The position numbers and the translations under genes were made by a program. The notes under the pieces are model-generated. The model searched no databases. It was not told where the DNA came from and saw only the letters and a program-made list of their open reading frames with translations. 64,000 bases of DNA from Betaproteobacteria bacterium (GTDB taxonomy: Bacteria; Pseudomonadota; Gammaproteobacteria; Burkholderiales; SHXO01): contig JANXRW010000053.1 of assembly GCA_025356655.1 (NCBI GenBank), positions 5,518 through 69,517 of the forward strand, written 5' to 3'. Position 1 is the first letter of the stretch. Each line of letters begins with the position of its first letter. Positions 1 to 20,108 of this stretch are shown here, piece by piece.

Positions 1-180
1 AGCCTGACTGAAGACAGCGATCTCTACGAGGCAGGGCTCACGTCGCTTACTACGGTGAACCTGATGCTTGCGCTGGAAGACAAATTCGACATCGAGTTTC
101 AAGATGCCATGCTCGGTCGCAAACTCTTCGCGACCATTCGCTCCCTGTCCGAGGCGCTGGAGACATTGGTCCATGAATGA
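1..180 (+). CDS. Acyl/peptidyl carrier protein, C-terminal part (5' end lies outside the window)
   Basis: Frame-1 translation reads SLTEDSDLYEAGLTSLTTVNLMLALEDKFDIEFQDAMLGRKLFATIRSLSEALETLVHE-stop. This has a carrier-protein helix-II pattern, with a candidate phosphopantetheinyl Ser in GLTSL. The stop (178-180) overlaps the next gene's start region (ATGAATGA). Confidence 0.75.
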   Translation, partial: SLTEDSDLYEAGLTSLTTVNLMLALEDKFDIEFQDAMLGRKLFATIRSLSEALETLVHE

Positions 181-1384
181 TGCCGTCGAACGCTTAGCGG
201 CCGCGCCTGCAGCCGACGCGCCCCGTCTGGACCTGGACGCGCTGCTGGCGAAGGTGCATGCCATCGGGCGCGAGGTGATTGCACCCAACGCGGACGCCGT
301 CGACCGCGACGGGCGCTTCCCCGAGGAGGCGATTGCGGCCCTAAAATCCGCCCAGCTGCTCAGTTCCTACGTGCCATTGAGCCTCGGCGGGATGGGTCTC
401 ACCATCACCGAGATGTCGCGGGTCTGCGAGGCGCTAGGCCAGTACTGCGCATCCACGGCCATGGTCTTCGCCATGCACCAGATTCAGGTTGCGTGCATCG
501 TTCATCATGCGCTGGGGAGCGCTTTTTTCCAGGGGTTCGTGGCCGAGTTGGTGGCAAACCAGTACCTGCTGGCGTCCGCCACCACCGAATTGGGGATTGG
601 CGGTGATGTGCGCTCCAGCATCTGCGCGGTGAAGGTCGAGGGCGAGCGCTTTACCCTCGAGAAGCAAGCGCCGGTTATTTCCTACGGCGAAATGGCCGAT
701 GCGATTCTCGTCACGGCCCGGCGCGCCGAGGACGCGGGGCGCAACGATCAAGTGCACGTGCTGGTCCGAAGGGCCGATTGCACGCTCAAGCGCATCAGCG
801 ATTGGGATACCCTGGGATTCCGGGGCACCTGCAGCCCCGGCTTCGTGCTCACGGCCACCGGAGCCGCCGAACAGATCCTGCCCGTGTCCTACGCCGAGAT
901 TCACGGCAGGACCATGCATCCCTACGCGCACATCGTCTGGAGTTCCCTGTGGCTGGGCCTAGCCACCGACGCGCTGAACCGCGCCCGTGCCACCGTGCGC
1001 GCGGAAGCCCGCAAGACGCCCGGCACCTTACCGATCTCCGCCACCCGCTTAGCCGAGGCCGACATGGTGCATTTCTCCATGCGCGGCGGGATCATTCAGA
1101 CCACCGCCGAGTACCAGCGAATGCTCCAGGAGAATGACCCCGGCACATCATCCAACTACGGGTTTTCGATCCGGGTCAATAACCTCAAAATCGTCAGCTC
1201 CCAGTTGGTGATCGACATCGTGGGGCGGGCAATGATCATTTGTGGGATTGCCGGCTACCGCAACGATTCCAAATCCAGCCTGGGCCGCCACCTGCGAGAC
1301 GCCTACGGGGCCAGCCTGATGGTCAACAACGACCGTATCCTGGGCCAAAGCGCCCTGATGCAAGTTGCCAACCGGGAAGGCTAG
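173..1384 (+). CDS. Acyl-CoA dehydrogenase-fold flavoprotein (probably acts on an acyl/aminoacyl-carrier-protein thioester)
   Basis: ORF 68..1384 was trimmed to the in-frame ATG at 173 (MNDAVERLAAAP...), which overlaps the carrier-protein stop by 8 nt. ACAD-like segments seen by eye: GGMGLTITEMSRVCEALGQYCASTAMVFAMHQ, WDTLGFRGTCSPGFVL, LRDAYGASLMVNNDRI. Confidence 0.85.
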   Translation: MNDAVERLAAAPAADAPRLDLDALLAKVHAIGREVIAPNADAVDRDGRFPEEAIAALKSAQLLSSYVPLSLGGMGLTITEMSRVCEALGQYCASTAMVFAMHQIQVACIVHHALGSAFFQGFVAELVANQYLLASATTELGIGGDVRSSICAVKVEGERFTLEKQAPVISYGEMADAILVTARRAEDAGRNDQVHVLVRRADCTLKRISDWDTLGFRGTCSPGFVLTATGAAEQILPVSYAEIHGRTMHPYAHIVWSSLWLGLATDALNRARATVRAEARKTPGTLPISATRLAEADMVHFSMRGGIIQTTAEYQRMLQENDPGTSSNYGFSIRVNNLKIVSSQLVIDIVGRAMIICGIAGYRNDSKSSLGRHLRDAYGASLMVNNDRILGQSALMQVANREG

Positions 1385-1386
1385 CC

Positions 1387-2310
1387 ATGTGCGACAAACA
1401 CAGCGATGATATCTACTCGGCCTACCGTGACGAACTCATCGCCGCCGGCCTGCTCATCCCCCTGGGTGTTGGTGGCCTCTATGGCCGTAGCGGGACCTTC
1501 GAGCACATCGTCGATCAGTTTGAGTACCTCATCACCCGCAGGGGCGCCTACCAGAAACCTGAGGTCATGCGCTTCCCCCCGATGTTCAGCCGCACACACT
1601 ACGAGGCGACGGGGCATCTGAAGAACTTCCCCGACCTCATCGGCTCCATCCACAGCTTTGAGGGCAACGAACGCGACCACCGCGACATGATGGCTAGCTT
1701 CGAGGGCGAACGGGGCTGGACCTCCCACCTGGTTGCCAGCGACATGATGCTCGTGCCCGCCGCCTGCTATCCACTCTACCCAACAGCGACCGGGACGCTA
1801 CCCCAGGGCGGGCGCTGCGTCGACCTGAAAACCTTCGTCTTTCGGCACGAGCCTTCCCCTGACCCGGCGCGCATGCAGATCTTCCGCCAGCGCGAATACG
1901 TCCGATTGGGTAGTGCCGACGAGGCCTTCGCCCACCGCAACACGTGGCTCGAAACGGGCAAGGAAATGCTCGAGGCGGTCGGTTTGGACGTGGCTGCCGT
2001 CGTGGCCAACGACCCGTTCTTCGGCCGCGGCGGCAAGGTCATGAAGGCCACCCAAGTCGAGCAGGTTCTGAAATACGAGTTGGTCGTCCCCATCTGCTCC
2101 ACAGAAAAGCCCACGGCGGTCAGTTCCTGCAACTACCACCTGGACCATTTCGGGCACGCGTTCGGCATCCTCACCGCGGATGGACAACCCGCGCACAGCG
2201 CCTGCATCGGCTTCGGCCTGGAGCGAATCACTTTGGCTCTCCTTAAAAAGCACGGTTTTCGGCTTGAGACCTGGCCCCGGGAAGTGCGCCAAGTGCTGGA
2301 GATGGCCTGA
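1387..2310 (+). CDS. Amino acid--[acyl-carrier-protein] ligase (truncated SerRS-like class II aaRS homologue)
   Basis: ORF 1240..2310 was trimmed to the ATG at 1387 (MCDKHSDDIYSAYRDELIAAGLL), 2 nt after the upstream stop; the product is 307 aa. It has a class II motif 2-like FVFRHEPSPDPARMQIFRQREYV and a motif 3-like GFGLERITLALL. There is no N-terminal coiled-coil tRNA-binding arm. Confidence 0.8.
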   Translation: MCDKHSDDIYSAYRDELIAAGLLIPLGVGGLYGRSGTFEHIVDQFEYLITRRGAYQKPEVMRFPPMFSRTHYEATGHLKNFPDLIGSIHSFEGNERDHRDMMASFEGERGWTSHLVASDMMLVPAACYPLYPTATGTLPQGGRCVDLKTFVFRHEPSPDPARMQIFRQREYVRLGSADEAFAHRNTWLETGKEMLEAVGLDVAAVVANDPFFGRGGKVMKATQVEQVLKYELVVPICSTEKPTAVSSCNYHLDHFGHAFGILTADGQPAHSACIGFGLERITLALLKKHGFRLETWPREVRQVLEMA

Positions 2311-2336
2311 TCCATGCTCCGGACGCCTCCTCGGCT

Positions 2337-3323
2337 GTGTCGCGCACGCGCATGAGATCCATCGCCCCACTCGACCCGGCCACCTACCGCCCCCATCGCA
2401 TCCACGGTGAGGGAAGGGCCTGGGCGCAGACCAACTGCTACACGGACGTGATCATCGAGATGCTGCACGGGTTGGGCTACGAACCCGTGGCCGCCCTACC
2501 CTTCACGCTCACGATCGATTTCGAGGGCGACCAGTGGACGTTTTTCAAGTTTCCGGACGCTGACCTCTGGGAGCTCTACGGGCTGGACATCCAGGAACTA
2601 GCCGTCTGGCGCCCGCTGGTGGATCACATCACCGAGCAGCTTAACGCCGGGCGGCCTGTCCTCGTGGAGTTGGACTCGCATTTCCTGCCGGACACCGCGG
2701 GCACGGCCTATCGCATCGCGCACGTCAAATCCACCGTGTGCGTTAATGAGATCGACGTGCAGCGTCAACACTTGGGCTACTTCCACAACCAGAGCTATTT
2801 CAACCTTCAGGGCGAAGACTTCCGGGACCTGTTCCAACTCGACGGCCCCGTGCACGAGCGGATGCTGCCGCCCTACATCGAATACGTGAAGCTTCCCCCT
2901 GCCGGCCCGGTTGCGCGACCGGATCTGGTGGAAGCCTCGCTCGCGGTGCTCGGCAAACACCTGCGCCGGATCCCGGCCGAAAACCCCTTCCCACGCTTCC
3001 GGGCCCGCTTCGCCGCAGATCTGGAATGGCTCATGGGGGCAGACATGGAAACCTTTCATGCCTACTCCTTCGCCACGCTGCGGCAGTACGGTGCCTGTTA
3101 CGAGCTCACCGATACCTATCTGCGTTGGCTGGAGGAACGCGGCCACGCCGGCCTTGCCGCGTGCGCGCAACCCTTCCGCCAAATCACAGAAACGGCCAAG
3201 GTCTTCCAGTTCCAACTCGCACGCGCCATGGCGCGCAGGAAGCCACTCGACCTCTCGCCACTCGAGGTCATGGCAGTGTGCTGGGAAGACGGCATGGAAC
3301 AGTTGCAAAAGCGCTTCGGCTGA
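2337..3323 (+). CDS. DUF1839-like uncharacterised protein
   Basis: The 328-aa ORF starts at GTG 2337 or ATG 2352. The N-terminal signature YRPHRIHGEGRAWAQTNCYTDVIIEMLHGLGYEP is one I recognise as DUF1839-like (from memory, unverified). The stop TGA (3321-3323) shares one base with the next ATG (TGATG). Confidence 0.7.
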   Translation: MSRTRMRSIAPLDPATYRPHRIHGEGRAWAQTNCYTDVIIEMLHGLGYEPVAALPFTLTIDFEGDQWTFFKFPDADLWELYGLDIQELAVWRPLVDHITEQLNAGRPVLVELDSHFLPDTAGTAYRIAHVKSTVCVNEIDVQRQHLGYFHNQSYFNLQGEDFRDLFQLDGPVHERMLPPYIEYVKLPPAGPVARPDLVEASLAVLGKHLRRIPAENPFPRFRARFAADLEWLMGADMETFHAYSFATLRQYGACYELTDTYLRWLEERGHAGLAACAQPFRQITETAKVFQFQLARAMARRKPLDLSPLEVMAVCWEDGMEQLQKRFG

Positions 3324-5863
3324 TGCCCGCCGTGATCGACCCGCCGGAGGGCGTTGACAAACAAGGCGGACCAGTAACCCTCGCCGTGGCGCCCTGGGAG
3401 CTGACCGACACGCCCGCCGGCGCCTGCCCCTCCCCCGACGCACTCGATGTCCTGCCCTTGCGCTGGCGAGCCACATCCGTTCCCGGCACGGTGGCTGGAA
3501 CCGTGTGGCAGGCGGCGGGCCCGACCCTCGATTACGATGCCTACGACTGGTGGTACCGGACCTCGTTCCTCGCCCCCGTCGAGACCGCGCGCGTGTGGCT
3601 GCGCTTGGACGGATTGGCCACCGTCGCACAGGTTTGGCTCAACGGCGGCAAAATTCTCGACGCGTGCAATATGTTCGTCGGTCACCGCATCGATATCACC
3701 GCGACGCTGCGCCCACAAAATCAGCTCTTTATCGCTTTCCGCGCCCTGCTCCCTGCCCTGCAGGCCCGCCGCGGCCGGCCACGCTGGCGGACAGCGCTGG
3801 TGGACCATCAGAACCTGCGGTGGTTTCGCACGACGCTGCTCGGACGAATTCCAGCCTGGACGGCTCCGCTCGCCCCGGTGGGCCCCTGGCGAGCGGTGGC
3901 GGTGGAACTCGCCCAGGTTGTAGAACTCACCGAACTCAACCTTCAGACCCGCGTAGCGGCTGGCTGTCCACACCTGCGGCTGCGCTGCTTCGCCACTACC
4001 ACAGGCAACGGCCAGATCCGTGCCGCGCGGTTGCGGCTGGGGGGCGAGATCCACGAACTGGCGATGGAGGCCGCAGATGGGGGCGGGATCGCACTGGCGG
4101 TGGACCTGACGCTTCCGGCGCTTCCCCTGTGGTGGCCCCACACCCATGGCACCCCAGCCAGGGTCTCCTGCGCCGTGGAGTTGGAGGTTGCCGGGACTTG
4201 GGTCTCCCGATCGCTCGGCCGCGTGGGCTTCAAACAGCTCGACGTGGAACAAGACGGCGGCAGCCTGCGCCTGCGCATCAATGACAGCGACGTGTTTTGC
4301 CGGGGCGCCTGCTGGACGCCGCTGGACGTCACCTCGCTACAGGCCTCCCGCGCCCAGCTTCGCCTTGCCCTGACGCAGGCGCGTGACTGCGGCGTCAACA
4401 TGCTGCGCGTCGTGGGCACCATGGTGTATGAGTGCGATCACTTCTACGAACTCTGCGACGAACTAGGGATCCTGGTGTGGCAGGATTTCATGTTCGCCAA
4501 TATGGATTATCCGCTCACCGACGAGGCTTTCCGGGCGGAGGCCGACGCCGAGGTGCGATTCCAACTCGTCCGCCTGCAGCGCTATGCCTGCATCGCCGCC
4601 TACTGCGGAGGGAGCGAAGTGGCTCAGCAGGCAGCTATGGTCGGGCTACCTGCGAGCGAATGGACCAACGAGTTCTTCTCCACCACGGTGGCGCAGCACT
4701 GCCGCGAGTTGCATCCGGCGACCGCCTACTTCCCCTCGACACCCTGGGGTGGGGCGCTACCCTTCCACGTGGGCACGGGCCTGTCTCATTACTACGGCGT
4801 GGGTGCCTACCGGCGGCCCTTGACTGACGCGCGCACGGCGAAGGTCCGCTTCACCACCGAATGCCTGGGATTCTCCAACGTCCCGGACGCGCAGTTCATT
4901 GCGCGGATGTTCCCTGGCCGCACGCCGGCGCCCCACGATCCGCGTTGGAAAGCGCGCGTGCCGCGCGATGCCGCGGCCGGTTGGGACTTCGAGGACATCC
5001 GCGATCACTATCTTGGCCTGCTCTTCAAGGTCGACCCCATTGCCCTACGCAGCGTCGATCCGATCCGCTACTACGCGTTGTCCCGAGTGGTCACCGGGGA
5101 GGTGATGCAATCTGTCTTCTCGCAGTGGCGAGACCCCGCGAGTGGCTGTGCCGGCGGCCTAGTATGGTTCCTGCGCGATCTGCAGCCGGGGGCGGGCTGG
5201 GGCATCCTGGACAGCACGGGCGGCGCGAAAGCGGCCTGCTGGTATCTCAAGCGTGCTTGGGCACCCCAGACCGTTCGCCTCACTGATGAAGGCCTCGACG
5301 GGCTTAGGATCCACGTTATCAACGACCGCGCAGCGCCCCTGGAAGCGGAACTCCAACTGGAGATGTTCCAATCCGGCCGGGTTCGCACTGCGTCGGCGCG
5401 CACCGCGGTCCATGTCCCGCCGCGTTCCAGCGTGACGCTCCAGGGCGACACACTCCTGGGCTACTTTTCCGACAGCACCTGCGCCTACGGTTTCGGCCCG
5501 CCCAAGCACGACGTTGTGGCGGTGCGTCTGGTGCGCCCTGCGGACCGCCTGCTGCTCGGCGAGGACTTCTACTTCCCCGGTGGCCTCGGGTTGCCCACCC
5601 AGCGCCCGGAGGGGGTGAGTTGCGAGGCCCAGTGGACAGCAGAGGGCAAGGTTGCCGTCACGCTGCGCTCGGACGTGTTCCTACAGGCCGTCAACGTGGA
5701 TTCGCCCGACGCAAGCGCAGACGACAACTACTTTCACGTGACGCCCGGGCACGACAAGCAGTTGCTCTTCACGCTATCCGACGCGGCATCCACCTCCTTC
5801 AAGGCCGACTTCGAGGCACTCAACCTGAGCGTCTCGCTGGCCGTTCGGCTCCAAAGGAAGTAG
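3323..5863 (+). CDS. Glycoside hydrolase family 2 protein, beta-mannosidase-like, cytoplasmic
   Basis: ORF 3026..5863 was trimmed to the ATG at 3323 (MPAVIDPPEGV...). GH2/beta-mannosidase-like segments are LWWPHTHG and NMLRVVGTMVYECDHFYELCDELGILVWQDFMFANMDYP. The candidate acid/base Glu is in YCGGSEV and the candidate nucleophile Glu in FTTECLGFSNVP. No signal peptide is present. Confidence 0.85.
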   Translation: MPAVIDPPEGVDKQGGPVTLAVAPWELTDTPAGACPSPDALDVLPLRWRATSVPGTVAGTVWQAAGPTLDYDAYDWWYRTSFLAPVETARVWLRLDGLATVAQVWLNGGKILDACNMFVGHRIDITATLRPQNQLFIAFRALLPALQARRGRPRWRTALVDHQNLRWFRTTLLGRIPAWTAPLAPVGPWRAVAVELAQVVELTELNLQTRVAAGCPHLRLRCFATTTGNGQIRAARLRLGGEIHELAMEAADGGGIALAVDLTLPALPLWWPHTHGTPARVSCAVELEVAGTWVSRSLGRVGFKQLDVEQDGGSLRLRINDSDVFCRGACWTPLDVTSLQASRAQLRLALTQARDCGVNMLRVVGTMVYECDHFYELCDELGILVWQDFMFANMDYPLTDEAFRAEADAEVRFQLVRLQRYACIAAYCGGSEVAQQAAMVGLPASEWTNEFFSTTVAQHCRELHPATAYFPSTPWGGALPFHVGTGLSHYYGVGAYRRPLTDARTAKVRFTTECLGFSNVPDAQFIARMFPGRTPAPHDPRWKARVPRDAAAGWDFEDIRDHYLGLLFKVDPIALRSVDPIRYYALSRVVTGEVMQSVFSQWRDPASGCAGGLVWFLRDLQPGAGWGILDSTGGAKAACWYLKRAWAPQTVRLTDEGLDGLRIHVINDRAAPLEAELQLEMFQSGRVRTASARTAVHVPPRSSVTLQGDTLLGYFSDSTCAYGFGPPKHDVVAVRLVRPADRLLLGEDFYFPGGLGLPTQRPEGVSCEAQWTAEGKVAVTLRSDVFLQAVNVDSPDASADDNYFHVTPGHDKQLLFTLSDAASTSFKADFEALNLSVSLAVRLQRK

Positions 5864-5872
5864 AACACGCCC

Positions 5873-7642
5873 GTGGGAGCTATCCATCAGTCGCCCGCGC
5901 CAAGCGACGGCGTGCAGCGCATCCCGGCATTTCTGCCCTACGCTGAGGGCGGGGCCCTCTTCACTTGGTATCACGCCGACGCGTCTGCTATAGCGCGCGA
6001 TTGCGTGGCCGTGCTCTGCCCGCCAATCGGCTTCGAGTACGCCCACAGCCATCGCTCGGTGCGCCATCTGGCCGATCGTCTGGCTCGCTGCGGCATCCCC
6101 GCGCTACGCCTGGACTACCGCGGTACGGGTGACGCCTCAGGAACCGACTTGGATCTCGACCGGATGTCTGCCTGGAAGGAGGACATCCGCACGGCGCAGG
6201 ATTACGCCAAGCGATGCAGCGGCAGGAGCAAGGTGTGCCTGATCGGCATCCGCCTGGGTGCCAGCCTAGCCGCCCTAGTCGCCAGCGAGGTGCAGGTGGA
6301 CCTGCTCGTGCTTTGGCATCCCGTGGTGAACGGTCGCCGGTACCTGCGCGAGATGCAAGCGGTGGCCCGCACCGCGAGCCAGGTCTCCGAGGCGGATGCG
6401 GCGCTGGAGAGTGGCGGATTCGTCCTCTCGGCACAGACCCAGGCAGGGATCAGCGAGATTAACCTGCTCGAGGAGCGCTTCCTCGTGAAGAGCCGCACGC
6501 TGGTGCTGGACCGCGAGGATCTCTCGCAGGACCCCGCGCTGCCGCAGCACCTCGCGCATCTCGCCCTCCCGCACGACCAGGTGGCCGTGCCCGGGTTTCT
6601 TGGCATGATGGCCGAGGCGCAGTTCACCGTCGTGCCCCAAGCGGCGCTGGAGGTAATCTGCGCTTGGGCGTGCACCCACAGCGCGGCGGCCGCGCCACCG
6701 GCCGCCGCGCTGATCACGGATGGCCATGCCCTGCATCCGGGCGCCGTGCTCGCAGCACCGGCCTTCGAGGAGCAGGCCCTGCGCTTTGGTCCGCAGCAGT
6801 CTCTCGTCGGCATCCTGACCCGGCCGCGTTCGCAAAGCAAGCGCCCCGTCATCGTGATGTTCAACGCGGGTGCCGTCCACCATGTGGGTCCGAACCGGAT
6901 CTACGTGTCTCTGGCCAGGGCCCTGGCGGCCTTGGGCTACGCATGCCTGCGCTTCGACCTCGCGGGACTGGGTGATAGCATTCCGGCCAACGGCTCCCCG
7001 GAAAACCACCCCTATCCGGATGCGGCAAGCGCCAATGCGGCAATGGCTTTGCAGGCCCTCAAAGCGTCGCATGGCTACGAGCGGTTCGTCATGTTGGGCC
7101 TGTGCTCTGGCGCCCACACGGGTTTCCACGCGGCAGTGGAGACGACTGGGTTTCCCATCTCGGAGCTCATCCTCATCAACCCGCTCACCTTCCGCTGGGT
7201 GGAAGGGATGAGCCTCGCGACCACCCGGCAGTTCCAGGACGTTGCCTATTACAAGCAATCCGCGCGCAGTGCGGCAAGTTGGATCAAGCTCCTGCGCGGT
7301 CGGGTGCATCCCGCCAAGCCCCTGAAGGCGCTGCACTCCCTTATTTCGAGAAACCTGAAATCCAGCTACGCGTACTGCCGCGACAGGCTGATTCCGGGTG
7401 CTGGATCTCCCGTCACCCGGCACCTTCGCCGACTCGCGGACATGCAAATATTGGTCACCCTGATCGTGTCGGAAGGGGACCCGGGACTCGATATCCTCAA
7501 GGCACAGGCGAGGTACGCGGTGGCTCGCGGGCTCAAGACCGGAACGCTCAGGTACCGACCCATCGCCGGCGCAGACCACACCTTCACGAAGGCGCAGTCG
7601 AGGGACGCGCTCGTCGCGTGCCTGAACCAACTACTGGCCTGA
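5873..7642 (+). CDS. Two-domain (tandem) alpha/beta-hydrolase-fold protein
   Basis: The 589-aa ORF starts at GTG 5873, 9 nt after the GH2 stop, with AGGAAG about 12 nt upstream. Two halves have the same architecture. The first has LRLDYRGTGDASG followed by the elbow GIRLG (Arg127 at the nucleophile position). The second has LRFDLAGLGDSIP followed by the elbow GLCSG (Cys411), plus GADHTF near the C-terminus. Confidence 0.75.
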   Translation: MGAIHQSPAPSDGVQRIPAFLPYAEGGALFTWYHADASAIARDCVAVLCPPIGFEYAHSHRSVRHLADRLARCGIPALRLDYRGTGDASGTDLDLDRMSAWKEDIRTAQDYAKRCSGRSKVCLIGIRLGASLAALVASEVQVDLLVLWHPVVNGRRYLREMQAVARTASQVSEADAALESGGFVLSAQTQAGISEINLLEERFLVKSRTLVLDREDLSQDPALPQHLAHLALPHDQVAVPGFLGMMAEAQFTVVPQAALEVICAWACTHSAAAAPPAAALITDGHALHPGAVLAAPAFEEQALRFGPQQSLVGILTRPRSQSKRPVIVMFNAGAVHHVGPNRIYVSLARALAALGYACLRFDLAGLGDSIPANGSPENHPYPDAASANAAMALQALKASHGYERFVMLGLCSGAHTGFHAAVETTGFPISELILINPLTFRWVEGMSLATTRQFQDVAYYKQSARSAASWIKLLRGRVHPAKPLKALHSLISRNLKSSYAYCRDRLIPGAGSPVTRHLRRLADMQILVTLIVSEGDPGLDILKAQARYAVARGLKTGTLRYRPIAGADHTFTKAQSRDALVACLNQLLA

Positions 7643-7706
7643 CCACCGGGCAGTCGGACGCGCAACCGGTGCATGGTCCAACGGGAACGGAGCCCAAGTT
7701 CAGATC

Positions 7707-7779
7707 CTGGTGAGGCGCACCGCCAGGTCGTGATTTTACATTCCTGTCGACCAACGTCGTAGATGACCTGCCTCACCAG
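7707..7779. other. Long-range inverted repeat / hairpin between the hydrolase gene and hflX
   Basis: CTGGTGAGGC (7707-7716) pairs with GCCTCACCAG (7770-7779). An inner AGGTC/GACCT pair lies after an 8-nt bulge, and the loop is AT-richer. Function is unknown. Confidence 0.4.
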
Positions 7780-7970
7780 CACAGTCCAGGCCCCTGCGTG
7801 CATCCGCGGGAGGACTCTGGTGCGGCTCCCGCTCGCCGGCCTTGACCCGGCCGGCGCCGTCCCTGCCACCGACGCACCGTCTCGCACCCGGGCCCCGGCG
7901 GGGATGCTCGGCTCCTTCACCAATGCGGGGTACCATCCGTGCCTGTCTCAGGGAAGGGAACCATCGCCCC

Positions 7971-9326
7971 ATGCAAAATGAACTCGCGCCCGAAGCCAAC
8001 CGCGCTCTTGTCGCCGCCGTCCAACTACCGACCGTGAGCGACGCGGAGTTCGAGGTGTCGCTTACCGAACTGCGCGAACTAGCCCAAACCCTGGGCTTCC
8101 AGGTGGTCGCCACCTTCACCCAGAAGCGCGCGAGTTTCGACGCGGCGGCCTACCTCGGTGCCGGCAAGCGTGAGGAGCTCCGCCGTTTCGTGCAGGGCGA
8201 GACCACCGGGGCCCAGGAGGGCCCCGGCCCCGCATCCCCGGACGCCCCCGTCGGCGCCGACATCGTTCTGGTGGACCATGAGATCTCGCCTTCCCAGGCA
8301 CGCATCCTGGAAAACGAGGTGGGGTGCGAAGTGATGGACCGGACGATGGTGATCCTGGAGATATTCCACCGCCATGCCAAATCGCGCGGCGCCCGCGCCC
8401 AGATCGAGATTGCTCGCCTGCGCTACCTCGCCCCACGCATCCGCGAAGCCGCAAAGCTGGCCGGACCGCAGGGCCGGCAGCGAAGCGGCGTGGGCGGTCG
8501 CGGCGCCGGCGAGTCCCATGGCGAACTGGATCGGCGCAAGATCCGGGACCGGATTGCCGAACTGCAGCAGGAGATCAACGCGATGGACCTGGAGCGGCGC
8601 ACCCAACGATCGCGCCGGCAAGGACGCCAGGGGCTCTCGCGCGTTTCGCTCGTGGGCTACACGAATGCCGGCAAGTCCACCCTGATGCGCGCACTCACCG
8701 GCAGCGAGGTGCTGGTCGCCAACAAGCTCTTCGCCACCCTGGACACCACCGTGCGCGCACTCGAGCCCGAGAGCGTCCCCAGAGTGCTGGTGAGCGACAC
8801 CGTAGGATTCATCAAGAACCTCCCCCACGACCTGGTTGCGTCCTTCAAGTCCACCCTCGAGGAGGCCGCGGAGGCCTCCCTGCTCCTGCACATCATCGAC
8901 GCAGCCGATCCGGGGTTCGAGCGCCAGGTCCAGGTCACCCGTGACGTACTCGAGGAGATCGGCGCCAAGGACCTGCCCCGCCTCATGGTCTTCAACAAGA
9001 TCGACGGCGTTGGAGACCCCGCCCTGCAGGAGAGCCGCTCGACCGAACTGCGCGCGCGCTACCCCGGGAGCTTGGTGATCAGCGCCCGCCGACCCGAGGA
9101 CATCGACCAGGTGCGGGAGCACCTGCTGGACTTCTTCCGTGGCGGGCTGGAAGAGGCGGAACTCTTCCTTCCCTGGTCAGCACAGCAATTGCGCGGCCAG
9201 ATCTTCGCCAACTGCGACGTGCAGGGCGAGCAAACCGAGGACGCTGGCACCCGGTTCCGGCTTCGCGCTGCGGCCGAGACCTTGCGCGCGCTGCGCGAGC
9301 AGTTGGAGTCGGCGGTGTCCGACTAG
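7971..9326 (+). CDS. hflX: GTPase HflX
   Basis: ORF 7842..9326 was trimmed to the ATG at 7971 (MQNELAPEANRALVAAVQLP), preceded by GGGAAGGGA. It has an HflX N-terminal domain and a G domain (LVGYTNAGKSTLMRALTG, DTVGFI, NKID). Confidence 0.9.
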   Translation: MQNELAPEANRALVAAVQLPTVSDAEFEVSLTELRELAQTLGFQVVATFTQKRASFDAAAYLGAGKREELRRFVQGETTGAQEGPGPASPDAPVGADIVLVDHEISPSQARILENEVGCEVMDRTMVILEIFHRHAKSRGARAQIEIARLRYLAPRIREAAKLAGPQGRQRSGVGGRGAGESHGELDRRKIRDRIAELQQEINAMDLERRTQRSRRQGRQGLSRVSLVGYTNAGKSTLMRALTGSEVLVANKLFATLDTTVRALEPESVPRVLVSDTVGFIKNLPHDLVASFKSTLEEAAEASLLLHIIDAADPGFERQVQVTRDVLEEIGAKDLPRLMVFNKIDGVGDPALQESRSTELRARYPGSLVISARRPEDIDQVREHLLDFFRGGLEEAELFLPWSAQQLRGQIFANCDVQGEQTEDAGTRFRLRAAAETLRALREQLESAVSD

Positions 9327-12468: not shown

Positions 12469-13479
12469 TCAGCCCAGGGGGCCGGAATACTTCTCGAGCA
12501 GGGCCCAGGCCTCGGGGCCATAGTTCTCCTTCCATTGCTTGTAATAGCCCGAGCGGCTGAGTTGTGCGCGAAAAGCTGCCGCATCGGTAGTATTGAAGAC
12601 CATACCATGCTTGCGCAGTTTGTCCTCGACGGTCTGACTGAGTTTCACTAGGTCCTCGCGCTCGCGCACCGCGGCGGCGTTGATGTGACGCGCCAATATT
12701 TCCTGCAAGGCGGGCGGCAGTTTGGCCCAGACCTTGCCGTTGACCAGGGTGAAGAAGCCGTCCCACATGTGGTTGGTGAAAGAGCAGTATTTCTGCACCT
12801 CGTAGAGCTTGGCTAGGTCGATCAACGGCAGCGCGTTCTCCTGCCCGTCGACGATTTTTGTCTGCAGGGCCGAGTAGGCCTCGCTAAAGTTGATGCTTGT
12901 CGGAGCGGCGCCCAGGGCCTTGAACAGCGACACCCACTGCGGGCTCACCGGCACACGCATCTTGAAGCCCTTGAGGTCATCGGGCCCGGTGATGGGGTGA
13001 GTACCGCTCGTCATCTGACGAAATCCGTTGTCCCACATCCGATCCAAGGCATGCATGCCGGCCTTCGCGATCACCCCTCGCAGGTAGGCACCCATTTCCC
13101 CGTCGAGCGCGCTCCAGACCTGCTTGTAGGACGCGAATGCAAAACCCACGCCGAAGAGCGAGGTGGGTTTAGTAAGCGTGGACAGGATGTTCCCCGAGAG
13201 GCTCATCATCTCCAGAGAACCGCTGCGCAGTTGGGACAGCATGTCAGTGTCGCCACCGAGTTGGTTGTTAGGAAAAACCCTCAACTCCAAGCGACCGCCC
13301 GACTCTTCCAGGATCTTCGGTGCTACTTCCGCGAGCCGCAGGTTCAGCGGATGGGTGGCCGGCACGTCGTTGCCAAACTTGACGACGAATTCCGCCGCCT
13401 GCGCATAGCGCCCGGTGACCGTGAGGCTTCCTGCCACCGCCACCGTTGCGGCCACGAAGCCGCGCCTATTGATTGTCAT
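12469..13479 (-). CDS. TRAP transporter substrate-binding protein (DctP family)
   Basis: 336 aa. It has a Tat-like signal (MTINRRGFVAATVAVAGSL) and DctP-type segments (FPNNQLGGDTDMLSQLRSGSLEM, LKGFKMRVP, ALQTKIVDGQEN). Confidence 0.9.
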   Translation of the reverse strand: MTINRRGFVAATVAVAGSLTVTGRYAQAAEFVVKFGNDVPATHPLNLRLAEVAPKILEESGGRLELRVFPNNQLGGDTDMLSQLRSGSLEMMSLSGNILSTLTKPTSLFGVGFAFASYKQVWSALDGEMGAYLRGVIAKAGMHALDRMWDNGFRQMTSGTHPITGPDDLKGFKMRVPVSPQWVSLFKALGAAPTSINFSEAYSALQTKIVDGQENALPLIDLAKLYEVQKYCSFTNHMWDGFFTLVNGKVWAKLPPALQEILARHINAAAVREREDLVKLSQTVEDKLRKHGMVFNTTDAAAFRAQLSRSGYYKQWKENYGPEAWALLEKYSGPLG

Positions 13480-13545: not shown

Positions 13546-15402
13546 TCAGTGGATGAATCCAATGGAGATCCAAGGAACGGCGGCGACGAGGATGACCCCG
13601 GCCAACAGGGCGACCATGTAGGCCAGGATCGCGCCCATGCCCTCGTCCGGACTCACGCGCCCGATGGCGCAGGCGGCGTAATAGCCTACGCCGAAGGGAG
13701 GTGCGAAGAGCCCCATGCCCATGGAGAGGATGACGACCATGGCGTAGTGCACCTCGTGGATACCCAACTGGCGTGCCACGGGAAATAGCAGCGGACCGAA
13801 GAGCACGATGGCGGGGATGCCCTCGAGCACGCTGCCCAACACGATGAAAACCAATATGGACACTGCGAGGAAACCCGCCGAAGCGCCAGGCAACGAGGCC
13901 ATCAGCCGCGTGAGGTCCTGCGAAAACCCCGACTGGGTGAGCGACCAGGCCATGCTGGTGGCAGCACCGATGATGAGGAGGATGGCCCCCGAGAGCGACG
14001 CGGTCTCCACGAGCAATCCGGGCAGGCGCCCCCAGCGCGCTCCGCGGTAGAGCGTGACGCCTGCCAACAGGCAATAGGCGATGCCGATGGTAGACACCTC
14101 CGTGGCGGTGGCGACTCCCTCTACCACGGCGGCCCGGATCACGAAGGGCAGCGCGAGCGCCGGTGCCGCCGTCACGAAGGCACGCATTACCTGCGCCGGG
14201 CTGGCGCGCTGGACCTGGGACAGATCTTCCCCGCGCGATCGCCACCACACGACCAAGCTCAGGGTGGCCGCCAGAACAACGCCGGGCAGTAGTCCGCCAG
14301 TGAACAGCGCCGTGATCGACACCCCGGTTACCGAGCCGATGGTGATCAGCACGAGGCTTGGCGGTATGGTTTCCGTCTGGGCCCCAGTGGCCGAGAGCAG
14401 TGCCACCAAGTCGCCGCGCTTGGCGCCCCGGCGCTCCATCTCGGGAAACAAAACGGGCGCCACCGCCGCCATGTCGGCAGCCTTGGAGCCGGAGATTCCC
14501 GACACCAGGTACATGGATCCCAGCAGGACATAGTGCAAACCGCCCCGTACGTGCCCCAGCAGGCTTCCCAGGAACGCCACCATGGCACGCGCCATCCCCG
14601 TCATTTCGATGAGCAGGCCGAGGAACACGAATAACGGAACCGAGAGCAGAATGAGGTGCGACATCCCCTCCTGCATGCGTCCCACCACGAGCGGCAGCGG
14701 CACGTCCGTGGTGAGCGAGAGATAGCCCACCGTGGCCAGCCCGAAACAAAAAGCGATGGGAATTCCTGCTAACACGCAGGCGGCGACAACGCCAACGAAG
14801 AACACCAGCAGGTTCCAGTTGCCCAGCCCGTGCAACAGCGGCGCTAGACCGGCCAGAGCACCGGCCAGCGCGGCGGTGATCGCAATGGAACCCAGCACCG
14901 TAGCGCCCCGGAAACCCTGGAATAAGCGCAGCAGGGCAGTAAGGATCATCAGCCCCGCGCCCACGGGTAATGCGGCCGCCCTCCAGGCATTGGAGATCTC
15001 TAGCGCAGGCGTCGAAACCACTAATTCGTCGCTCGCAAAGTCCACTGCCGGCCCCTGCAGCAACAGCAAGAACAGCGCTCCCCCAGTAATGGTCAGTGCC
15101 TCGAGCAACTCCCGGGCCTGCGGCCCGCACCGGCCCACCAGCGCCGTCATGCGCATGTGCTCGCCACGGCGCAGCGCAACGACTGCTCCTAGCATGCCGA
15201 GCCAGAGGAACAGGATGGAAGCCAGTTCGTCGGACCAGACCAGGGGCTGCTGGAAAACGTAGCGCGCGACAACCCCAGCGAACAAGGTGAGGATTTCGCA
15301 TAGGACTAGGCCGGCGGCCAGGAACTCCACGCCGATCCCCAGGACGCGCTCCAGGCGCCCCGCCCAAAGCCGCAACATCACGCTCAGCCCCGCTCGTGCC
15401 AT
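13546..15402 (-). CDS. TRAP transporter fused small/large permease (DctQ-DctM fusion)
   Basis: ORF 13546..15585 was trimmed to the ATG at 15402 (MARAGLSVMLRLWAG...), with GGAGGA upstream. A DctQ-like N-terminus (FAGVVARYVFQQPLVWSDELASILFLWLGMLGAVVALRRGEHMRM) is followed by a polytopic DctM-like region. Confidence 0.85.
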   Translation of the reverse strand: MARAGLSVMLRLWAGRLERVLGIGVEFLAAGLVLCEILTLFAGVVARYVFQQPLVWSDELASILFLWLGMLGAVVALRRGEHMRMTALVGRCGPQARELLEALTITGGALFLLLLQGPAVDFASDELVVSTPALEISNAWRAAALPVGAGLMILTALLRLFQGFRGATVLGSIAITAALAGALAGLAPLLHGLGNWNLLVFFVGVVAACVLAGIPIAFCFGLATVGYLSLTTDVPLPLVVGRMQEGMSHLILLSVPLFVFLGLLIEMTGMARAMVAFLGSLLGHVRGGLHYVLLGSMYLVSGISGSKAADMAAVAPVLFPEMERRGAKRGDLVALLSATGAQTETIPPSLVLITIGSVTGVSITALFTGGLLPGVVLAATLSLVVWWRSRGEDLSQVQRASPAQVMRAFVTAAPALALPFVIRAAVVEGVATATEVSTIGIAYCLLAGVTLYRGARWGRLPGLLVETASLSGAILLIIGAATSMAWSLTQSGFSQDLTRLMASLPGASAGFLAVSILVFIVLGSVLEGIPAIVLFGPLLFPVARQLGIHEVHYAMVVILSMGMGLFAPPFGVGYYAACAIGRVSPDEGMGAILAYMVALLAGVILVAAVPWISIGFIH

Positions 15403-15506
15403 ACGTCTTTTCCTCCCCCCCGCGCTCCTGGCGCGATGTGCGAGGGTTGATTCTAATGCAAGCCGTCGCCTTGCACGACGAGCTTGCAAGGGGGGGCTCC
15501 GCGCGC

Positions 15507-16043
15507 TCAGAGTAGTCGAACCGGAGTCACCTCCACCGTGCGCGTGCCGTCCGTAAGCCAGGCCTGTGCATCTTGGATCGTGCACTGCAGTGCCATATTG
15601 CGCTGCACCAGGTCGCCCAAAGTTCCACCAGTGTAGTTATCCAACTTCCACACGGCGAGGTTGTTTTGGCGTCGCAACAGATCGGCGTTGGCTTGCCACC
15701 AGAGGTCCGTTACGCGACCGCCGAAGCTATACAGGATCACCTGCGCCGAGCGCCCGCAGGCCTTGCGCAGATCGCGCGGCTCGGGCTGCCCTACGTCAAT
15801 CCAGCATTGGATGGCGCCCGTGAGGTCTTTAGCCCAAATATCGGCTTCGTCCTCAGTGCCGAGGCCACGGCCAAAAAGCAGGGTCTCGCTGGCATTGAGT
15901 GCGAACGCCAGCAATCGCACCATCATCCGCTCGTCCGTCTCGGAAGGGTGGCGAGCGAGTGTGAGTGCGTGCTGCGCATAGTAGCCTCGGTCCATGTCCG
16001 CGATCTGCAGATCGGCCTTGAAAATGGTGGCCTTGAGGGCCAT
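15507..16043 (-). CDS. yaeQ: YaeQ family protein
   Basis: ORF 15507..16088 was trimmed to the ATG at 16043. MALKATIFKADLQIADMDRGYYAQHALTLARHPSETDERMMVRLLAFAL is a typical YaeQ N-terminus. Confidence 0.85.
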   Translation of the reverse strand: MALKATIFKADLQIADMDRGYYAQHALTLARHPSETDERMMVRLLAFALNASETLLFGRGLGTEDEADIWAKDLTGAIQCWIDVGQPEPRDLRKACGRSAQVILYSFGGRVTDLWWQANADLLRRQNNLAVWKLDNYTGGTLGDLVQRNMALQCTIQDAQAWLTDGTRTVEVTPVRLL

Positions 16044-16422
16044 GGGCGCGTCTCCCGGTGCAAGGTTGGGCGGCGCGCTCAGACACACCCGCCGTCGAAG
16101 GCCGTGACGCTACAGTAGCCCGGGGGCACTTGCAAACCCGCGGACCACGGAGCAAGCGCACCGGGCGCCGGTACCCCTCTGGCCCTGCGCCACACAGGTG
16201 CCCCACGAACGGGACGCCGAAGTGTGGCGGCCCTCGCGCATGCGCGCTCACCGAAGCGTGGCCCGCCGCTCAGGCGGGCCTTTGCACCTCCTGCGAAGAG
16301 CGGCTGGACCAACCGGCGGAGCCGCGGCGGGGCCGAGGGAAGGCGGAACAAGAACCCCTTGTTCGGGGTCTGCGCGGGGCGCCACCGCGTGCGCGCCCCT
16401 GAGCGACGGTGCGCAGCGCCAG

Positions 16423-17607
16423 CTAACCCTGCACCGCCTTCTGCGCGCGCAATTCCCCGATGGCCACATCGTCGTAGCCCAACTCCGCAAGTATCGCCAC
16501 CGTATGCTCCCCCACCGCCGGAATGGGCCCCATGCGCGGATCGAACTCCGCGGGCATGCCGGGGGGCAGGAACGCGCGGATGCTACCGGCCGGCGACTCC
16601 ACGTCCACCCAGCGCGCTCGGGCCGCAAGTTGCGGGTGATCCCACACGGCTTTCATGTCATTCACCCGGGCATTGCCGATCTTTGCGGCATCCAAGCGCC
16701 GGAGGATCTCCTCAGCGCCGAACCGGGAGAAGGCTTCCGTAATGATGCCCCGAAGCAGCGACCGGGACTCGGAGCGGCGCGGATTGGACGAGAAGCGCCG
16801 GTCGGTGGCGAGCGCTGGGTTCTCCAACACCTTCTCGCAGAAGATCGCCCACTCGCGTTCGTTCTGCAAACCCATCATGATCACGTTGCCGTCGCCGGCA
16901 GTGAAGGCGCCGTAGGGATAGATCGTGGCGTGATCGGCTCCGGCGCGCGGCGGTGGCGTGGACCCGTCGTAGGCATAGTAGAGGGGGAAACCCATCCACT
17001 CCACCATGCTCTCCAACATGGAGACGTCGATGCGACAGCCCTTGCCCGTCCTGCCTCGATGGATTAGCGCCGCCAGGATATTGCTGTAGGCATACATTCC
17101 CGCAGCAATGTCCACAATGGAGCAGCCCGCCTTAGCGGGCGTCTCGGGCGTTCCGGTGATGGACACCAGCCCCGCCTCGCTCTGCACGAGGAGGTCGTAG
17201 GCTTTCTTGTCCCGGTAGGGCCCGTCGGCGCCGTAGCCGGAAATGTCGCAGACGATAAGGCGCGGATGCCGCCCGTGCAACTGGTCGTAGGACATGCCCA
17301 GGCGGGCGGCCGAACCGGGAGCCAAGTTCTGTACCAGCACGTCGGCGCGCTCTAGCAGTCGCTCCAGAATAGTCGTCGCCTCCGGATGCTTGAGGTCGAG
17401 GGCAAGGCTCTCCTTGCTTCGATTGGTCCACACGAAGTGCGACGACTGCCCGCGCGTGCGCTCGTCATAGGCCCGGGCGGGATCCCCCACCACGGGGCGC
17501 TCGATCTTGATCACGCGAGCCCCCAGATCGGCGAGTTGGCGCGTGCAGAAGGGCCCGGCAATGACGTGTTCGAGGGCGAGGACGGTAATGCCTTCCAGAG
17601 GTCTCAT
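16423..17607 (-). CDS. CaiB/BaiF family (class III) CoA-transferase
   Basis: 394 aa. The N-terminus MRPLEGITVLALEHVIAGPFCTRQLADLGARVIKIERP is typical of family III CoA transferases. Confidence 0.9.
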   Translation of the reverse strand: MRPLEGITVLALEHVIAGPFCTRQLADLGARVIKIERPVVGDPARAYDERTRGQSSHFVWTNRSKESLALDLKHPEATTILERLLERADVLVQNLAPGSAARLGMSYDQLHGRHPRLIVCDISGYGADGPYRDKKAYDLLVQSEAGLVSITGTPETPAKAGCSIVDIAAGMYAYSNILAALIHRGRTGKGCRIDVSMLESMVEWMGFPLYYAYDGSTPPPRAGADHATIYPYGAFTAGDGNVIMMGLQNEREWAIFCEKVLENPALATDRRFSSNPRRSESRSLLRGIITEAFSRFGAEEILRRLDAAKIGNARVNDMKAVWDHPQLAARARWVDVESPAGSIRAFLPPGMPAEFDPRMGPIPAVGEHTVAILAELGYDDVAIGELRAQKAVQG

Positions 17608-17711
17608 AGGGATCCAGTGTGCAGGGGAGGGGCCGCCCGGGCTAAGGACACACCCAGGGCTGCCGGGTGCGCCGCGCGAGCATGCCAGCCGAACGGCAAT
17701 GCACTTCGGCC

Positions 17712-18464
17712 CTAAACGGTGCGCCCGCCGTCGACGGGCAACTCCACGCCGGTGAAGAACTCCGCCGCATCGCTCGCCAGGAACACCGCTGCCGCCGCCA
17801 CATCCGAGGGCTTGGAAAAGCGCCCGATTGGGATGGTGGACATGAACCGCGCACGGTTCTCTGGGGTATCGGGTACGCCCATGAATTGCTCAAAAAGTCC
17901 GGTCACGCCCATCACCGGGCAGATCACGTTAACGCGAATTTTCTCGGGCGCGAGTTCTACCGCCATGGACTTGGACAGGATGTTCACCGCACCCTTGGAG
18001 GCGTTGTACCAGGACAGCCCGGGACGGGGTCGGATCCCGGCCGTAGACCCGATGTTGAGGATCACGCCGCCACCGCGCTTACGCATGAGGGGTAGCACGG
18101 CGTGGGTCATGTAATAGATGGACTTCACGTTCACCGCGAAAACCCGGTCGAAGCTCTGTTCGTCCACCTCCAGCATGGGCTGATTCTTGTGCGTGGTGCC
18201 GGCGTTGTTGACCACCACGTCGGGGATTCCGAAGGTGGTCGAACAAAACGCCACCAGCGCTTCCATCTGCGCGCGGTTCGCCACATCCACGACGAAGGGT
18301 GCCGCCGCCGGGCCCAGTTCACCGGCGACGCGACGTGCGGCCTCGCCATCAAGGTCGGCGACGACCACGCGGGCCCCCTCCTGCACGTAGGCTGCGGCGA
18401 TCCCCTCGCCAAAGCCCCCTGCAGCGCCCGTCACGATAGCAATCTTGTTCTGCAACTGGTTCAT
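17712..18464 (-). CDS. SDR family oxidoreductase
   Basis: ORF 17712..19193 was trimmed to the ATG at 18464 (MNQLQNKIAIVTGAAGGFGEGIA). It shows the TGxxxGxG, NNAG and YNASK motifs. Confidence 0.9.
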   Translation of the reverse strand: MNQLQNKIAIVTGAAGGFGEGIAAAYVQEGARVVVADLDGEAARRVAGELGPAAAPFVVDVANRAQMEALVAFCSTTFGIPDVVVNNAGTTHKNQPMLEVDEQSFDRVFAVNVKSIYYMTHAVLPLMRKRGGGVILNIGSTAGIRPRPGLSWYNASKGAVNILSKSMAVELAPEKIRVNVICPVMGVTGLFEQFMGVPDTPENRARFMSTIPIGRFSKPSDVAAAAVFLASDAAEFFTGVELPVDGGRTV

Positions 18465-18484
18465 GGTCACTCTCTCCCGCAGCG

Positions 18485-19918: not shown

Positions 19919-20108
19919 TTCATGCACTCCGCTAAAGTATCGCGCCCCCTCTTTCCCGCCCGTTTTTCCGCCCGCCCTCACCCGCGCAAAGGACCAGCAC
20001 TCGCGGGGATCGATTGATTATCTTACGTCGCGGGGCCCTCGTGCCGGGGCTCCGCGCGGCAGCGGTTCCCCGGGGGCGAGCGCGGTCAGCGCCCGCGCGC
20101 CCGACGCC

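Follow-up and report, generated by a model that had tools for sequence, protein, structure and literature searches.

The subject of this study is a cassette of six genes at the left end (nt 1–7642) of the window, a 64,000-nt stretch of contig JANXRW010000053.1 that derives, judging by its closest relatives, from an uncultured Burkholderiales-like organism. All six genes lie on the forward strand and, as seen in the table of open reading frames (ORFs) and in the raw sequence, they are tightly packed. In order, they specify a small carrier protein (CP), a flavoenzyme of the acyl-CoA dehydrogenase (ACAD) fold, an amino acid:[carrier protein] ligase resembling seryl-tRNA synthetase (SerRS), a DUF1839 protein, a beta-mannosidase-like protein of family GH2 and a two-domain alpha/beta hydrolase. 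The CP stop codon (TGA, nt 178–180) and the ACAD start codon (ATG, nt 173–175) give an 8-nt overlap, while the stop of the ACAD gene (ending at nt 1384) is separated by 2 nt from the ligase ATG at nt 1387. The ligase gene ends at nt 2310 and is followed by the DUF1839 gene after 26 nt if the latter starts at a GTG (nt 2337), or after 41 nt if it starts at an ATG (nt 2352), as in the public gene call. A single base (nt 3323) is common to the DUF1839 TGA (nt 3321–3323) and the GH2 ATG (nt 3323–3325), and 9 nt lie between the end of the GH2 gene (nt 5863) and the GTG of the hydrolase gene (nt 5873). The hydrolase gene ends at nt 7642, and a gap of 328 nt precedes the ATG of hflX at nt 7971. All of these junctions agree with those listed in an earlier note, made from the sequence alone, and the six family assignments given there held in Pfam and NCBIfam scans. 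The six genes form one compact operon, as that note had proposed, a conclusion supported by the overlapping or abutting frames and by a gene order that is kept across phyla.

A public contig (L001) that is identical to the window and reaches further upstream carries the complete CP gene (80 aa, L001 nt 4701–4943), of which 63 nt (21 codons) lie outside the window. The CP gene is preceded by a gap of ~620 nt and then by a divergent Acyl_transf_3 gene, and this indicates that the operon starts with the CP gene and that no further same-strand genes are missing. The 5′ end of the operon, which had been placed beyond the window, is thus displaced by no more than those 63 nt of the CP gene. At the other end, a consensus scan and reading of the sequence revealed a terminator-like hairpin on the + strand (CCTGGTG...CGCCAGG, nt 7706–7727, L001 nt 12469–12490), 64 nt past the hydrolase stop codon, with a T-rich tail extending to nt 7737. 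This feature, purely a pattern match, likely marks the 3′ end of the operon. The GC content at the cassette is 63–66%, compared to 62–68% across the window, and does not point to a foreign island of recent origin. A search for a riboswitch or other RNA element found no Rfam family at the gathering threshold in the ~620-nt leader of the CP gene or in the 64-kb window, and no tRNA gene was found in the whole window (nt 1–64000). According to a rough hydropathy scan, none of the six proteins carries a signal peptide or a transmembrane segment.

The six proteins

The 3′ part of the CP gene (59 of its 80 codons) occupies nt 1–180 (+) of the window. The protein matches Pfam PP-binding (E = 1e-7) and the acyl carrier protein (ACP) model NCBIfam NF005480 (82 bits, cut-off 72), the next-best matches being DltC models, and its phosphopantetheine serine lies within the motif GLTSL. 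Two genes downstream of this dedicated carrier is the gene for the 307 aa ligase (nt 1387–2310, +), which has the appearance of a truncated, SerRS-like class II catalytic core. It scores 437.6 bits against NF005479, the amino acid--[ACP] ligase equivalog (cut-off 357), matches only positions 340–505 of the 518-position model for methanogen-type serine--tRNA ligase, and has no N-terminal tRNA-binding domain. The solved ligase Bll0957 of Bradyrhizobium (PDB 3mey/4h2w) aligns over its residues 44–331 (E = 1e-73, ~50% identity). The zinc-ligand positions, Cys/Glu/Cys in the motifs AACYP, REY and ACIGFG (xCxxFG), align with those of Bll0957 and are conserved in the orthologues from other copies of the cassette. 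In Bll0957 we take these ligands to be C131, E176 and C279. On the strength of the model score, the similarity to Bll0957 and the retained zinc ligands, ORF 1387–2310 is assigned by sequence to the amino acid:CP ligase family of truncated methanogen-type SerRS homologues, as the earlier note had it. The expected substrate is an amino acid of Gly, Ala or Ser size. Next to the last zinc ligand, however, the pocket of the cassette ligases reads A-C-I-G rather than the G-C-V-A of Bll0957, with Gly at the position of Bll0957 Ala281 and Ala at that of Gly278. The A281G change in Bll0957 reportedly moves its preference away from Gly, towards small amino acids of larger size. Because these pocket residues differ, the preferred amino acid of the two enzymes may differ as well.

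The DUF1839 protein (nt 2352–3323, +; 323 aa from the ATG at nt 2352, with the GTG at nt 2337 as an alternative) matches PF08893 with 401.8 bits, and a permissive Pfam scan (E up to 10) returned DUF1839 itself and nothing else. An AlphaFold2 (AF2) model based on a 48-sequence alignment, with a predicted local distance difference test (pLDDT) value of 87.6 and a predicted template modelling (pTM) score of 0.88, is bipartite, consisting of an N-terminal alpha/beta domain (up to about residue 180) and a helical bundle at the C terminus (residues 192–322). C29, T128 and H145 (numbered from the ATG at nt 2352) are invariant among the 48 sequences, and Cys29 is situated at the start of a helix (residues 29–40) in the model. 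When the model was compared with the PDB by Foldseek, the significant full-length fold matches were AziU2/U3 (E = 1e-7), CtaG (E = 2e-5) and CcbD (E = 3e-5) only, with template modelling (TM) scores of 0.52–0.63 over ~330 columns.

Two of these three proteins are informative about a possible function. CcbD, a papain-like Cys enzyme, has an alpha/beta domain at its N terminus and a helical one at its C terminus; the DUF1839 model matches it over its full length, and CcbD/LmbD pass a carrier-tethered proline to the amine of an amino-octose by a Cys-based ping-pong mechanism (PMC12945683). CtaG is a papain-like bipartite ligase by which an acyl group is transferred from one carrier protein to an amine (PMC12865890); BtrH, AsbE and MllDE are named as its relatives, and DUF1839 is not among the homologues named in the sections consulted. 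The likeness of DUF1839 to CtaG-type ligases is at the level of the fold, namely a bipartite papain-like architecture with a Cys near the N terminus. Enzymes of that type use a carrier-bound acyl donor and form an amide, properties that are assigned to DUF1839 here by fold and context; CtaG uses two carrier proteins, whereas the cassette has one. Based on the fold similarity to CcbD and CtaG, DUF1839 is predicted to be a papain-like, carrier-protein-dependent transacylase, which lends support to the suggestion in the earlier note that it is an off-loading or transfer enzyme. The full-length match of the modelled fold to CcbD and CtaG is new relative to the published predictions.

The ACAD-fold flavoenzyme (nt 173–1384, +; 403 aa) matches Pfam Acyl-CoA_dh_N and Acyl-CoA_dh_1 above the cut-off, with the middle domain (Acyl-CoA_dh_M) falling below it (21.8 vs. 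33.3 bits). It is far from every NCBIfam equivalog (best 91.7 bits, cut-off 600) and distant from all characterised acyl-CoA dehydrogenases (best PDB match, E = 1.7e-12). A GYRNDSK loop, with its Asp, is conserved among the ACAD orthologues of the cassette; the Asp of GYRND presumably aligns with the loop bearing the catalytic base of MCAD/SCAD-type enzymes.

The GH2 glycosidase (nt 3323–5863, +; 846 aa, no signal peptide) is recognised by Pfam Glyco_hydro_2_N2 and Ig_mannosidase, and resembles the Bacteroides beta-mannosidase BtMan2A (PDB 2vjx) over residues 74–817 (E = 7.5e-54). The acid/base Glu (CG(G/N)SE) and the nucleophile Glu (xECLGF) are kept in every aligned cassette orthologue that covers the motifs, and by these conserved glutamates the protein looks catalytically competent. 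Their positions were read from the alignment, the catalytic glutamates of BtMan2A presumably being E462 and E555. The residue before the acid/base Glu is Ser in every cassette orthologue that covers the motif, in contrast to the Asn of BtMan2A (CGNNE). An Asn-Glu ('NE') pair at the acid/base is a motif of clan GH-A, and since the Asn is replaced by Ser the substrate may not be a plain beta-mannoside.

In the hydrolase, the N-terminal domain (residues ~1–290; nt 5873–6742, +) is related to hydr2_PEP (TIGR03101, Pfam Hydrolase_4) and the C-terminal domain (residues ~291–589; nt 6743–7642, +) to hydr1_PEP (TIGR03100). These models describe the exosortase A system-associated hydrolases 2 and 1, and both halves score under the cut-offs (104 bits vs. 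202.75 and 142.6 bits vs. 168.45, respectively). These two families are the most similar to the halves, in the order hydr2 then hydr1, but here the halves are fused, and no exosortase or PEP-CTERM genes were seen among the neighbours up to ~24 kb downstream and 4.7 kb upstream. With sub-threshold scores and no such context, membership of the exosortase A system was rejected.

The nucleophile elbows of the hydrolase are unusual. Across 32 orthologues, that of the N domain reads G-x-R127-x-G-A, with a conserved Arg at the nucleophile position, and that of the C domain reads G-L-C-S-G-A. In a hydrolase alignment (A2), C411 and H569 (DHTF) are invariant, and R127 and D536 (GDPG) nearly so. The protein described earlier as a tandem hydrolase does have two alpha/beta domains, but the N half has Arg in place of a nucleophile and the C half uses Cys, not Ser; by its motifs it is a nucleophile-less domain joined to a Cys-Asp-His domain, and not a classical G-x-S-x-G serine hydrolase. 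To our knowledge, no alpha/beta-hydrolase family with Arg at the nucleophile position has been described. A phosphate or carboxylate, either on the substrate or on the arm of the carrier protein, could be the ligand of Arg127. A Foldseek comparison of the AF2 model (pLDDT 84.2, pTM 0.87) with the PDB returned generic esterases, lipases, feruloyl esterases and the LuxD acyl-ACP thioesterase, with no specific functional analogue; the N half shows a weak Acyl_transf_2 (LuxD) match and the model matches the myristoyl-ACP thioesterase 1tht. A second, divergent double-hydrolase match occurs near the cassette in two loci from Cellvibrionaceae. In one of them (L020) the matches are at nt 15813–17588 (−) and 18895–20649 (+), and one copy has lost the Arg (N-elbow F-H-S-S); in the other (L054) they are at nt 15768–17573 (−) and 20081–20890 (+), the second comprising the N half only and running to the end of the locus.

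Conservation and gene neighbourhood

Scanning one genome per GTDB species with the ligase gave a set of 52 loci, with ligase identities of 49–74%. They come from Burkholderiales, Usitatibacter, Cellvibrionaceae, Spongiibacteraceae, Planctomycetota (Schlesneria, Gemmataceae, Pirellulales), Acidobacteriota, Verrucomicrobiota and one member of the Acidimicrobiales. The earlier note had proposed looking for co-occurrence of the other genes with the ligase across genomes, and tblastn searches with the window proteins, counted among loci with enough flanking sequence, show that they do travel together: CP was found in 44 of 44 loci, ACAD in 45 of 46, DUF1839 in 50 of 51, GH2 in 37 of 41 and the hydrolase in 37 of 40. 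DUF1839 is the most tightly linked partner. The genes are strictly colinear within 9.5 kb in 26 loci; in some loci the hydrolase gene lies elsewhere in the vicinity or in the opposite orientation, and a few lack GH2. At least five phyla share the six-gene order and, found as it is in dozens of loci across several phyla, the arrangement cannot be put down to chance. The flanks, on the other hand, are not conserved, as no transporter, glycosyltransferase, phosphopantetheinyl transferase (PPTase) or other flanking gene was found beyond 6–8 of the ~50 loci, and this marks the cassette as a functional unit. In high-GC loci the naive ORF caller gave antisense shadow ORFs, and clusters 5, 8 and 9 were disregarded.

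These data bear directly on the idea that the six genes are merely adjacent and unrelated, or that they form a catabolic cassette for degrading an imported glycoconjugate. GH2 enzymes and alpha/beta hydrolases are typical degradative classes, and one or the other is missing or displaced in some loci. Overlapping or abutting frames and colinearity across phyla nevertheless oppose chance, the pairing of an ATP-consuming ligase and a carrier protein is a mark of biosynthesis, and the cassette has no transporter or binding protein as a conserved companion. Both versions of this idea appear very improbable.

Replicons (RefSeq plasmid/chromid) of Rhizobium leguminosarum, Mycetohabitans rhizoxinica and Azospirillum brasilense also carry the cassette, with its genes annotated individually and ligase identities of 48–50%, and its description in the earlier note as an orphan was mistaken. 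Nor is the neighbourhood novel, as that note had implied. A note added in proof by Aravind et al. in 2010 (PMC2922099) had already described the conserved neighbourhood of the Agrobacterium-type SerRS paralogue, in which an ACP and a redox enzyme are joined by a glycosidase, lipopolysaccharide (LPS) genes and an uncharacterised but highly conserved protein (e.g., Atu2574). The authors predicted that the redox enzyme modifies the aminoacyl moiety, and that the Atu2574-type (DUF1839-type) protein is an amide-forming ligase joining the amino acid to a cell-surface amino sugar. The neighbourhood was reported again in 2023, in the supplement of a survey of papain-like enzymes (PMC10318531), where DUF1839 is consistently beside GH2, the amino acid-ACP ligase, ACAD and ACP. 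By the summaries of Mocibob 2010 in PMC2922099 and PMC9437257, homologous ligases adenylate a small amino acid and load it onto a CP; the second of these sources, a review from 2022, still called the biological role of the amino acid:CP ligases derived from aminoacyl-tRNA synthetases (aaRSs) unknown. A literature search found no paper resolving the pathway of the cassette.

The present locus shares its ligase family, zinc ligands and dedicated CP with Agrobacterium tumefaciens Atu2571–Atu2574 and Bradyrhizobium Bll0957/Bsr0959, and, going by the description in PMC2922099, it shares with the Agrobacterium locus the ACP, the redox enzyme, the Atu2574-type ORF (here DUF1839) and the glycosidase. 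It differs in its source, an uncultured organism, and in the pocket residues that set its ligase apart from Bll0957. The locus is one more instance of a widespread cassette to which the Agrobacterium locus with the characterised ligase also belongs, and is neither an orphan nor new.

Polysaccharide genes (Acyl_transf_3 (AT3), GalE, Ugd, GT4, GT2, DegT, Wzx and GH26) recur near the cassette in subsets of the loci and are not universal. The AT3 gene adjoining the present cassette, just upstream of position 1 of the window (L001 nt 2875–4083, −), codes for a membrane acyltransferase of 402 aa. An AT3 gene lies beside the cassette in six loci (L001, L012, L023, L026, L050 and L054), the other five proteins showing 35–39% identity. 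A GalE-like epimerase is found near the cassette in eight loci, and Ugd and GT4 in six each (identities assigned by eye from the sequences). The cassette of L054 (Cellvibrionaceae bacterium 1162T.S.0a.05; nt 1474–8392 and 14500–19259) is embedded in a glycan-type cluster: upstream are genes for a CysQ-like phosphatase, CysD, CysN/C, a methyltransferase, GT2 and a DegT-type sugar aminotransferase, and GH2 is separated by an AT3 gene from an inverted hydrolase gene, after which comes a 560-aa ORF without a Pfam match. This recurrence of polysaccharide genes fits the link to a glycoconjugate that the earlier note had suggested.

The most reduced variant is L051, from a metagenome-assembled genome of Acidimicrobiales (nt 1954–5311), in which a PPTase (ACPS) gene and the ligase gene are on one strand and the genes for the fused hydrolase and CP on the other, with a Wzx-type flippase, GH26 and GT2 as neighbours. 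As this locus does not carry DUF1839, ACAD or GH2, the trio of ligase, CP and hydrolase may be an older core.

A proposed pathway and its rivals

The reading we favour, to which we give about an even chance, is that of a self-contained, cytoplasmic thiotemplate cassette, independent of nonribosomal peptide synthetases and orthologous to Agrobacterium Atu2571–2574, in which DUF1839 would transfer an acyl group to an amine with formation of an amide. In its favour are the assignment of the ligase with its dedicated CP, the conserved gene order, the fold and invariant Cys29 of DUF1839, the intact GH2 glutamates, the recurring polysaccharide genes and the cytoplasmic look of all six proteins, and the gene-neighbourhood prediction of 2010 (PMC2922099) had arrived at it independently. 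In the first step, shown for homologues and proposed here from sequence, the zinc-dependent ligase would adenylate an amino acid of Gly, Ala or Ser size and load it onto the phosphopantetheine arm of the 80-aa CP. The ACAD-fold flavoenzyme may then modify the tethered aminoacyl group by dehydrogenation or oxygenation. In a third step, suggested by the fold, the invariant Cys and the tight linkage of its gene, DUF1839 would accept the acyl group on Cys29 and pass it by a ping-pong mechanism to an amine, forming an amide bond, with CcbD (amino sugar) and CtaG (carrier-bound amine) as analogues; among possible acceptors, an amino sugar in a precursor of a glycan or glycolipid seems the likeliest. 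More speculatively, GH2 and the double hydrolase, the latter pairing a binding domain that bears the Arg with a catalytic Cys-Asp-His domain, might process a glycoside or thioester in a trimming, deprotection, release or proofreading step. The 'complete' pathway of the earlier note is not borne out to that extent, given that the acceptor, the product and the roles of ACAD, GH2 and the hydrolase stay inferred.

A route through aminomalonyl-ACP was considered and rejected as the main model, as the cassette has no partner resembling 3-hydroxyacyl-CoA dehydrogenase. In that route, known from zwittermicin and colibactin, seryl-ACP is processed by a dehydrogenase and an ACAD.

A precedent for the favoured pathway is lincosamide synthetase (LmbC/CcbC for adenylation, LmbN/CcbZ as carrier protein and LmbD/CcbD for condensation), which likewise carries its amino acid on a stand-alone carrier protein. 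The loader of the cassette, however, is a class II enzyme derived from an aaRS and not an ANL adenylation domain; DUF1839 has no detectable sequence similarity to CcbD, and its reported triad is C-(T/S)-H as opposed to Cys-His-Glu; and the cassette adds genes for ACAD, GH2 and the double hydrolase.

Several points weigh against amide transfer by DUF1839. Experimental support stops at the loading of the CP. The amino acid loaded may differ from that of Bll0957, as the pocket residues do (A-C-I-G in the cassette ligases, G-C-V-A in Bll0957). PDB searches with a single sequence and with a profile gave no sequence-level similarity of DUF1839 to CcbD, CtaG or BtrH. Its triad is reported as permuted and non-canonical (PMC10318531), and its top fold match, AziU2/U3, is not a transacylase and is treated in PMC12865890 as similar in structure but unrelated in function. 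Two Cys enzymes, DUF1839 and the C domain of the hydrolase, compete for the off-loading role, and the minimal variant L051, in keeping ligase, CP and hydrolase without DUF1839, ACAD or GH2, suggests that the hydrolase and not DUF1839 may be the core partner. Finally, the conserved core has no glycosyltransferase, sugar aminotransferase or exporter, and the link to glycans is seen in a minority of loci.

The competing claim of the hydrolase is the basis of the main rival, in which the cassette carries out an O-aminoacylation of the cell envelope (an ester linkage) akin to that of the Dlt and Alm systems. The Cys-Asp-His domain of the hydrolase would then be the transferase, aided by AT3 in some genomes, with aminoacyl-CP as the donor and LPS, extracellular polysaccharide (EPS) or lipid as the target, and DUF1839 would be an editing or recycling thioesterase or amidase. 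In Vibrio, the AlmEFG system decorates lipid A with Gly that has been adenylated and loaded onto a carrier. The Dlt system (DltA/DltC/DltB/DltD) similarly uses adenylated D-Ala on a small dedicated carrier to decorate an envelope polymer (PMC12930378), and the CP of the cassette gives weak matches to DltC. Unlike both systems, the cassette has a class II aaRS loader instead of an ANL enzyme, its core carries no MBOAT or LpxL-type transferase, and neither Dlt nor Alm has an equivalent of DUF1839, ACAD or GH2. Several observations nonetheless speak for envelope O-aminoacylation: DltC models are the second-best NCBIfam matches of the CP, L051 is reduced to ligase, CP and double hydrolase, with Wzx, GH26 and GT2 beside them, and AT3 accompanies the cassette in six loci, this one included. 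The hydrolase also contributes, in that its N half matches Acyl_transf_2 (LuxD) weakly, its model matches 1tht, and its halves resemble the exosortase-A-associated hydrolase pair, which we take, from the TIGRFAM descriptions, to be linked to an ACP and an adenylating ligase. Set against this, AT3 is missing from most loci, all core proteins look cytoplasmic, the core is devoid of MBOAT, DltB-like or LpxL-like transferases, and DUF1839, whose structural relatives are amide-forming ligases and not hydrolases, is the most tightly linked gene (50/51). We regard this ester-forming scheme as unlikely, although it is the strongest of the alternatives; a secondary-metabolite pathway is less probable still, as is chance adjacency.

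The same fold relatives that point to amide transfer also occur in natural product pathways (closthioamide, lincosamide, butirosin, petrobactin and methylolanthanin), and the cassette might instead make a small molecule, with DUF1839 acting like CtaG, AsbE or BtrH, GH2 removing a protecting sugar and the hydrolase releasing the product. That product would be a short N-acyl or oligo-aminoacyl compound, or a conjugate of a polyamine or aminoglycoside. Such a role would suit a self-contained and seemingly laterally mobile cassette (plasmids, non-conserved flanks) with no conserved glycosyltransferase. A single CP and no second activating enzyme, on the other hand, fit it poorly, as does the lack of any conserved exporter, regulator or resistance gene. 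The very broad phyletic spread and strict gene order would be unusual for a specialised metabolite, and the recurring neighbours are polysaccharide genes. A natural product pathway is accordingly judged improbable.

Returning to amide transfer by DUF1839, a more specific and correspondingly more tentative version, possible but rather doubtful, is that the cassette makes an amino sugar bearing an N-linked, flavoenzyme-modified aminoacyl group on a surface glycan or glycolipid precursor. DUF1839 would then represent a sequence-divergent, triad-permuted branch of the CcbD/CtaG enzymes, and the fused hydrolase a new kind of carrier-protein-dependent transacylase or proofreader.

Surrounding genes and significance

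The genes downstream of the cassette in the window look unrelated to it (HflX, alcohol dehydrogenase, TRAP transporter, CoA-transferase, short-chain dehydrogenase, lactonase, major facilitator superfamily transporter and PPK2). The TRAP transporter genes specify a DctP solute-binding protein (nt 12469–13479, −) and, adjoining it, a fused DctQ-DctM membrane protein of 679 aa (nt 13546–15585, −), and a family III CoA-transferase is encoded nearby (nt 16423–17607). A 493-aa ORF at nt 17712–19193 (−) has its short-chain dehydrogenase domain in residues 250–491 only, and the ~250 N-terminal residues are without a Pfam match at E ≤ 1e-5; the listed GTG start may have been set too far upstream, or an N-terminal domain may have gone unrecognised. 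Upstream of the cassette, by ~3.2 kb, L001 carries genes for a PIN-domain toxin and a MazE/PrlF-type antitoxin (nt 835–1457, −), and between this pair and the AT3 gene is a fragment of an alpha/beta-hydrolase gene (60 aa).

The biochemistry and structures of the amino acid:CP ligases were solved in 2010–2013, and the present locus adds no new kind of system. What is new here is the fold match of DUF1839, as modelled, the conserved GH2 glutamates with an altered neighbour of the acid/base, the Arg and Cys-Asp-His motifs of the hydrolase and the recurring polysaccharide neighbours, and this structural and motif support makes a 15-year-old prediction testable. If the cassette does make an N-(modified aminoacyl) amino sugar, this would be the first physiological role for the aaRS-derived amino acid:CP ligases, which have been known since 2010. 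Were the product an aminoacylated surface glycan, it would be relevant to the LPS and EPS chemistry of rhizobia, Azospirillum, symbionts of the Burkholderia group and many environmental phyla.

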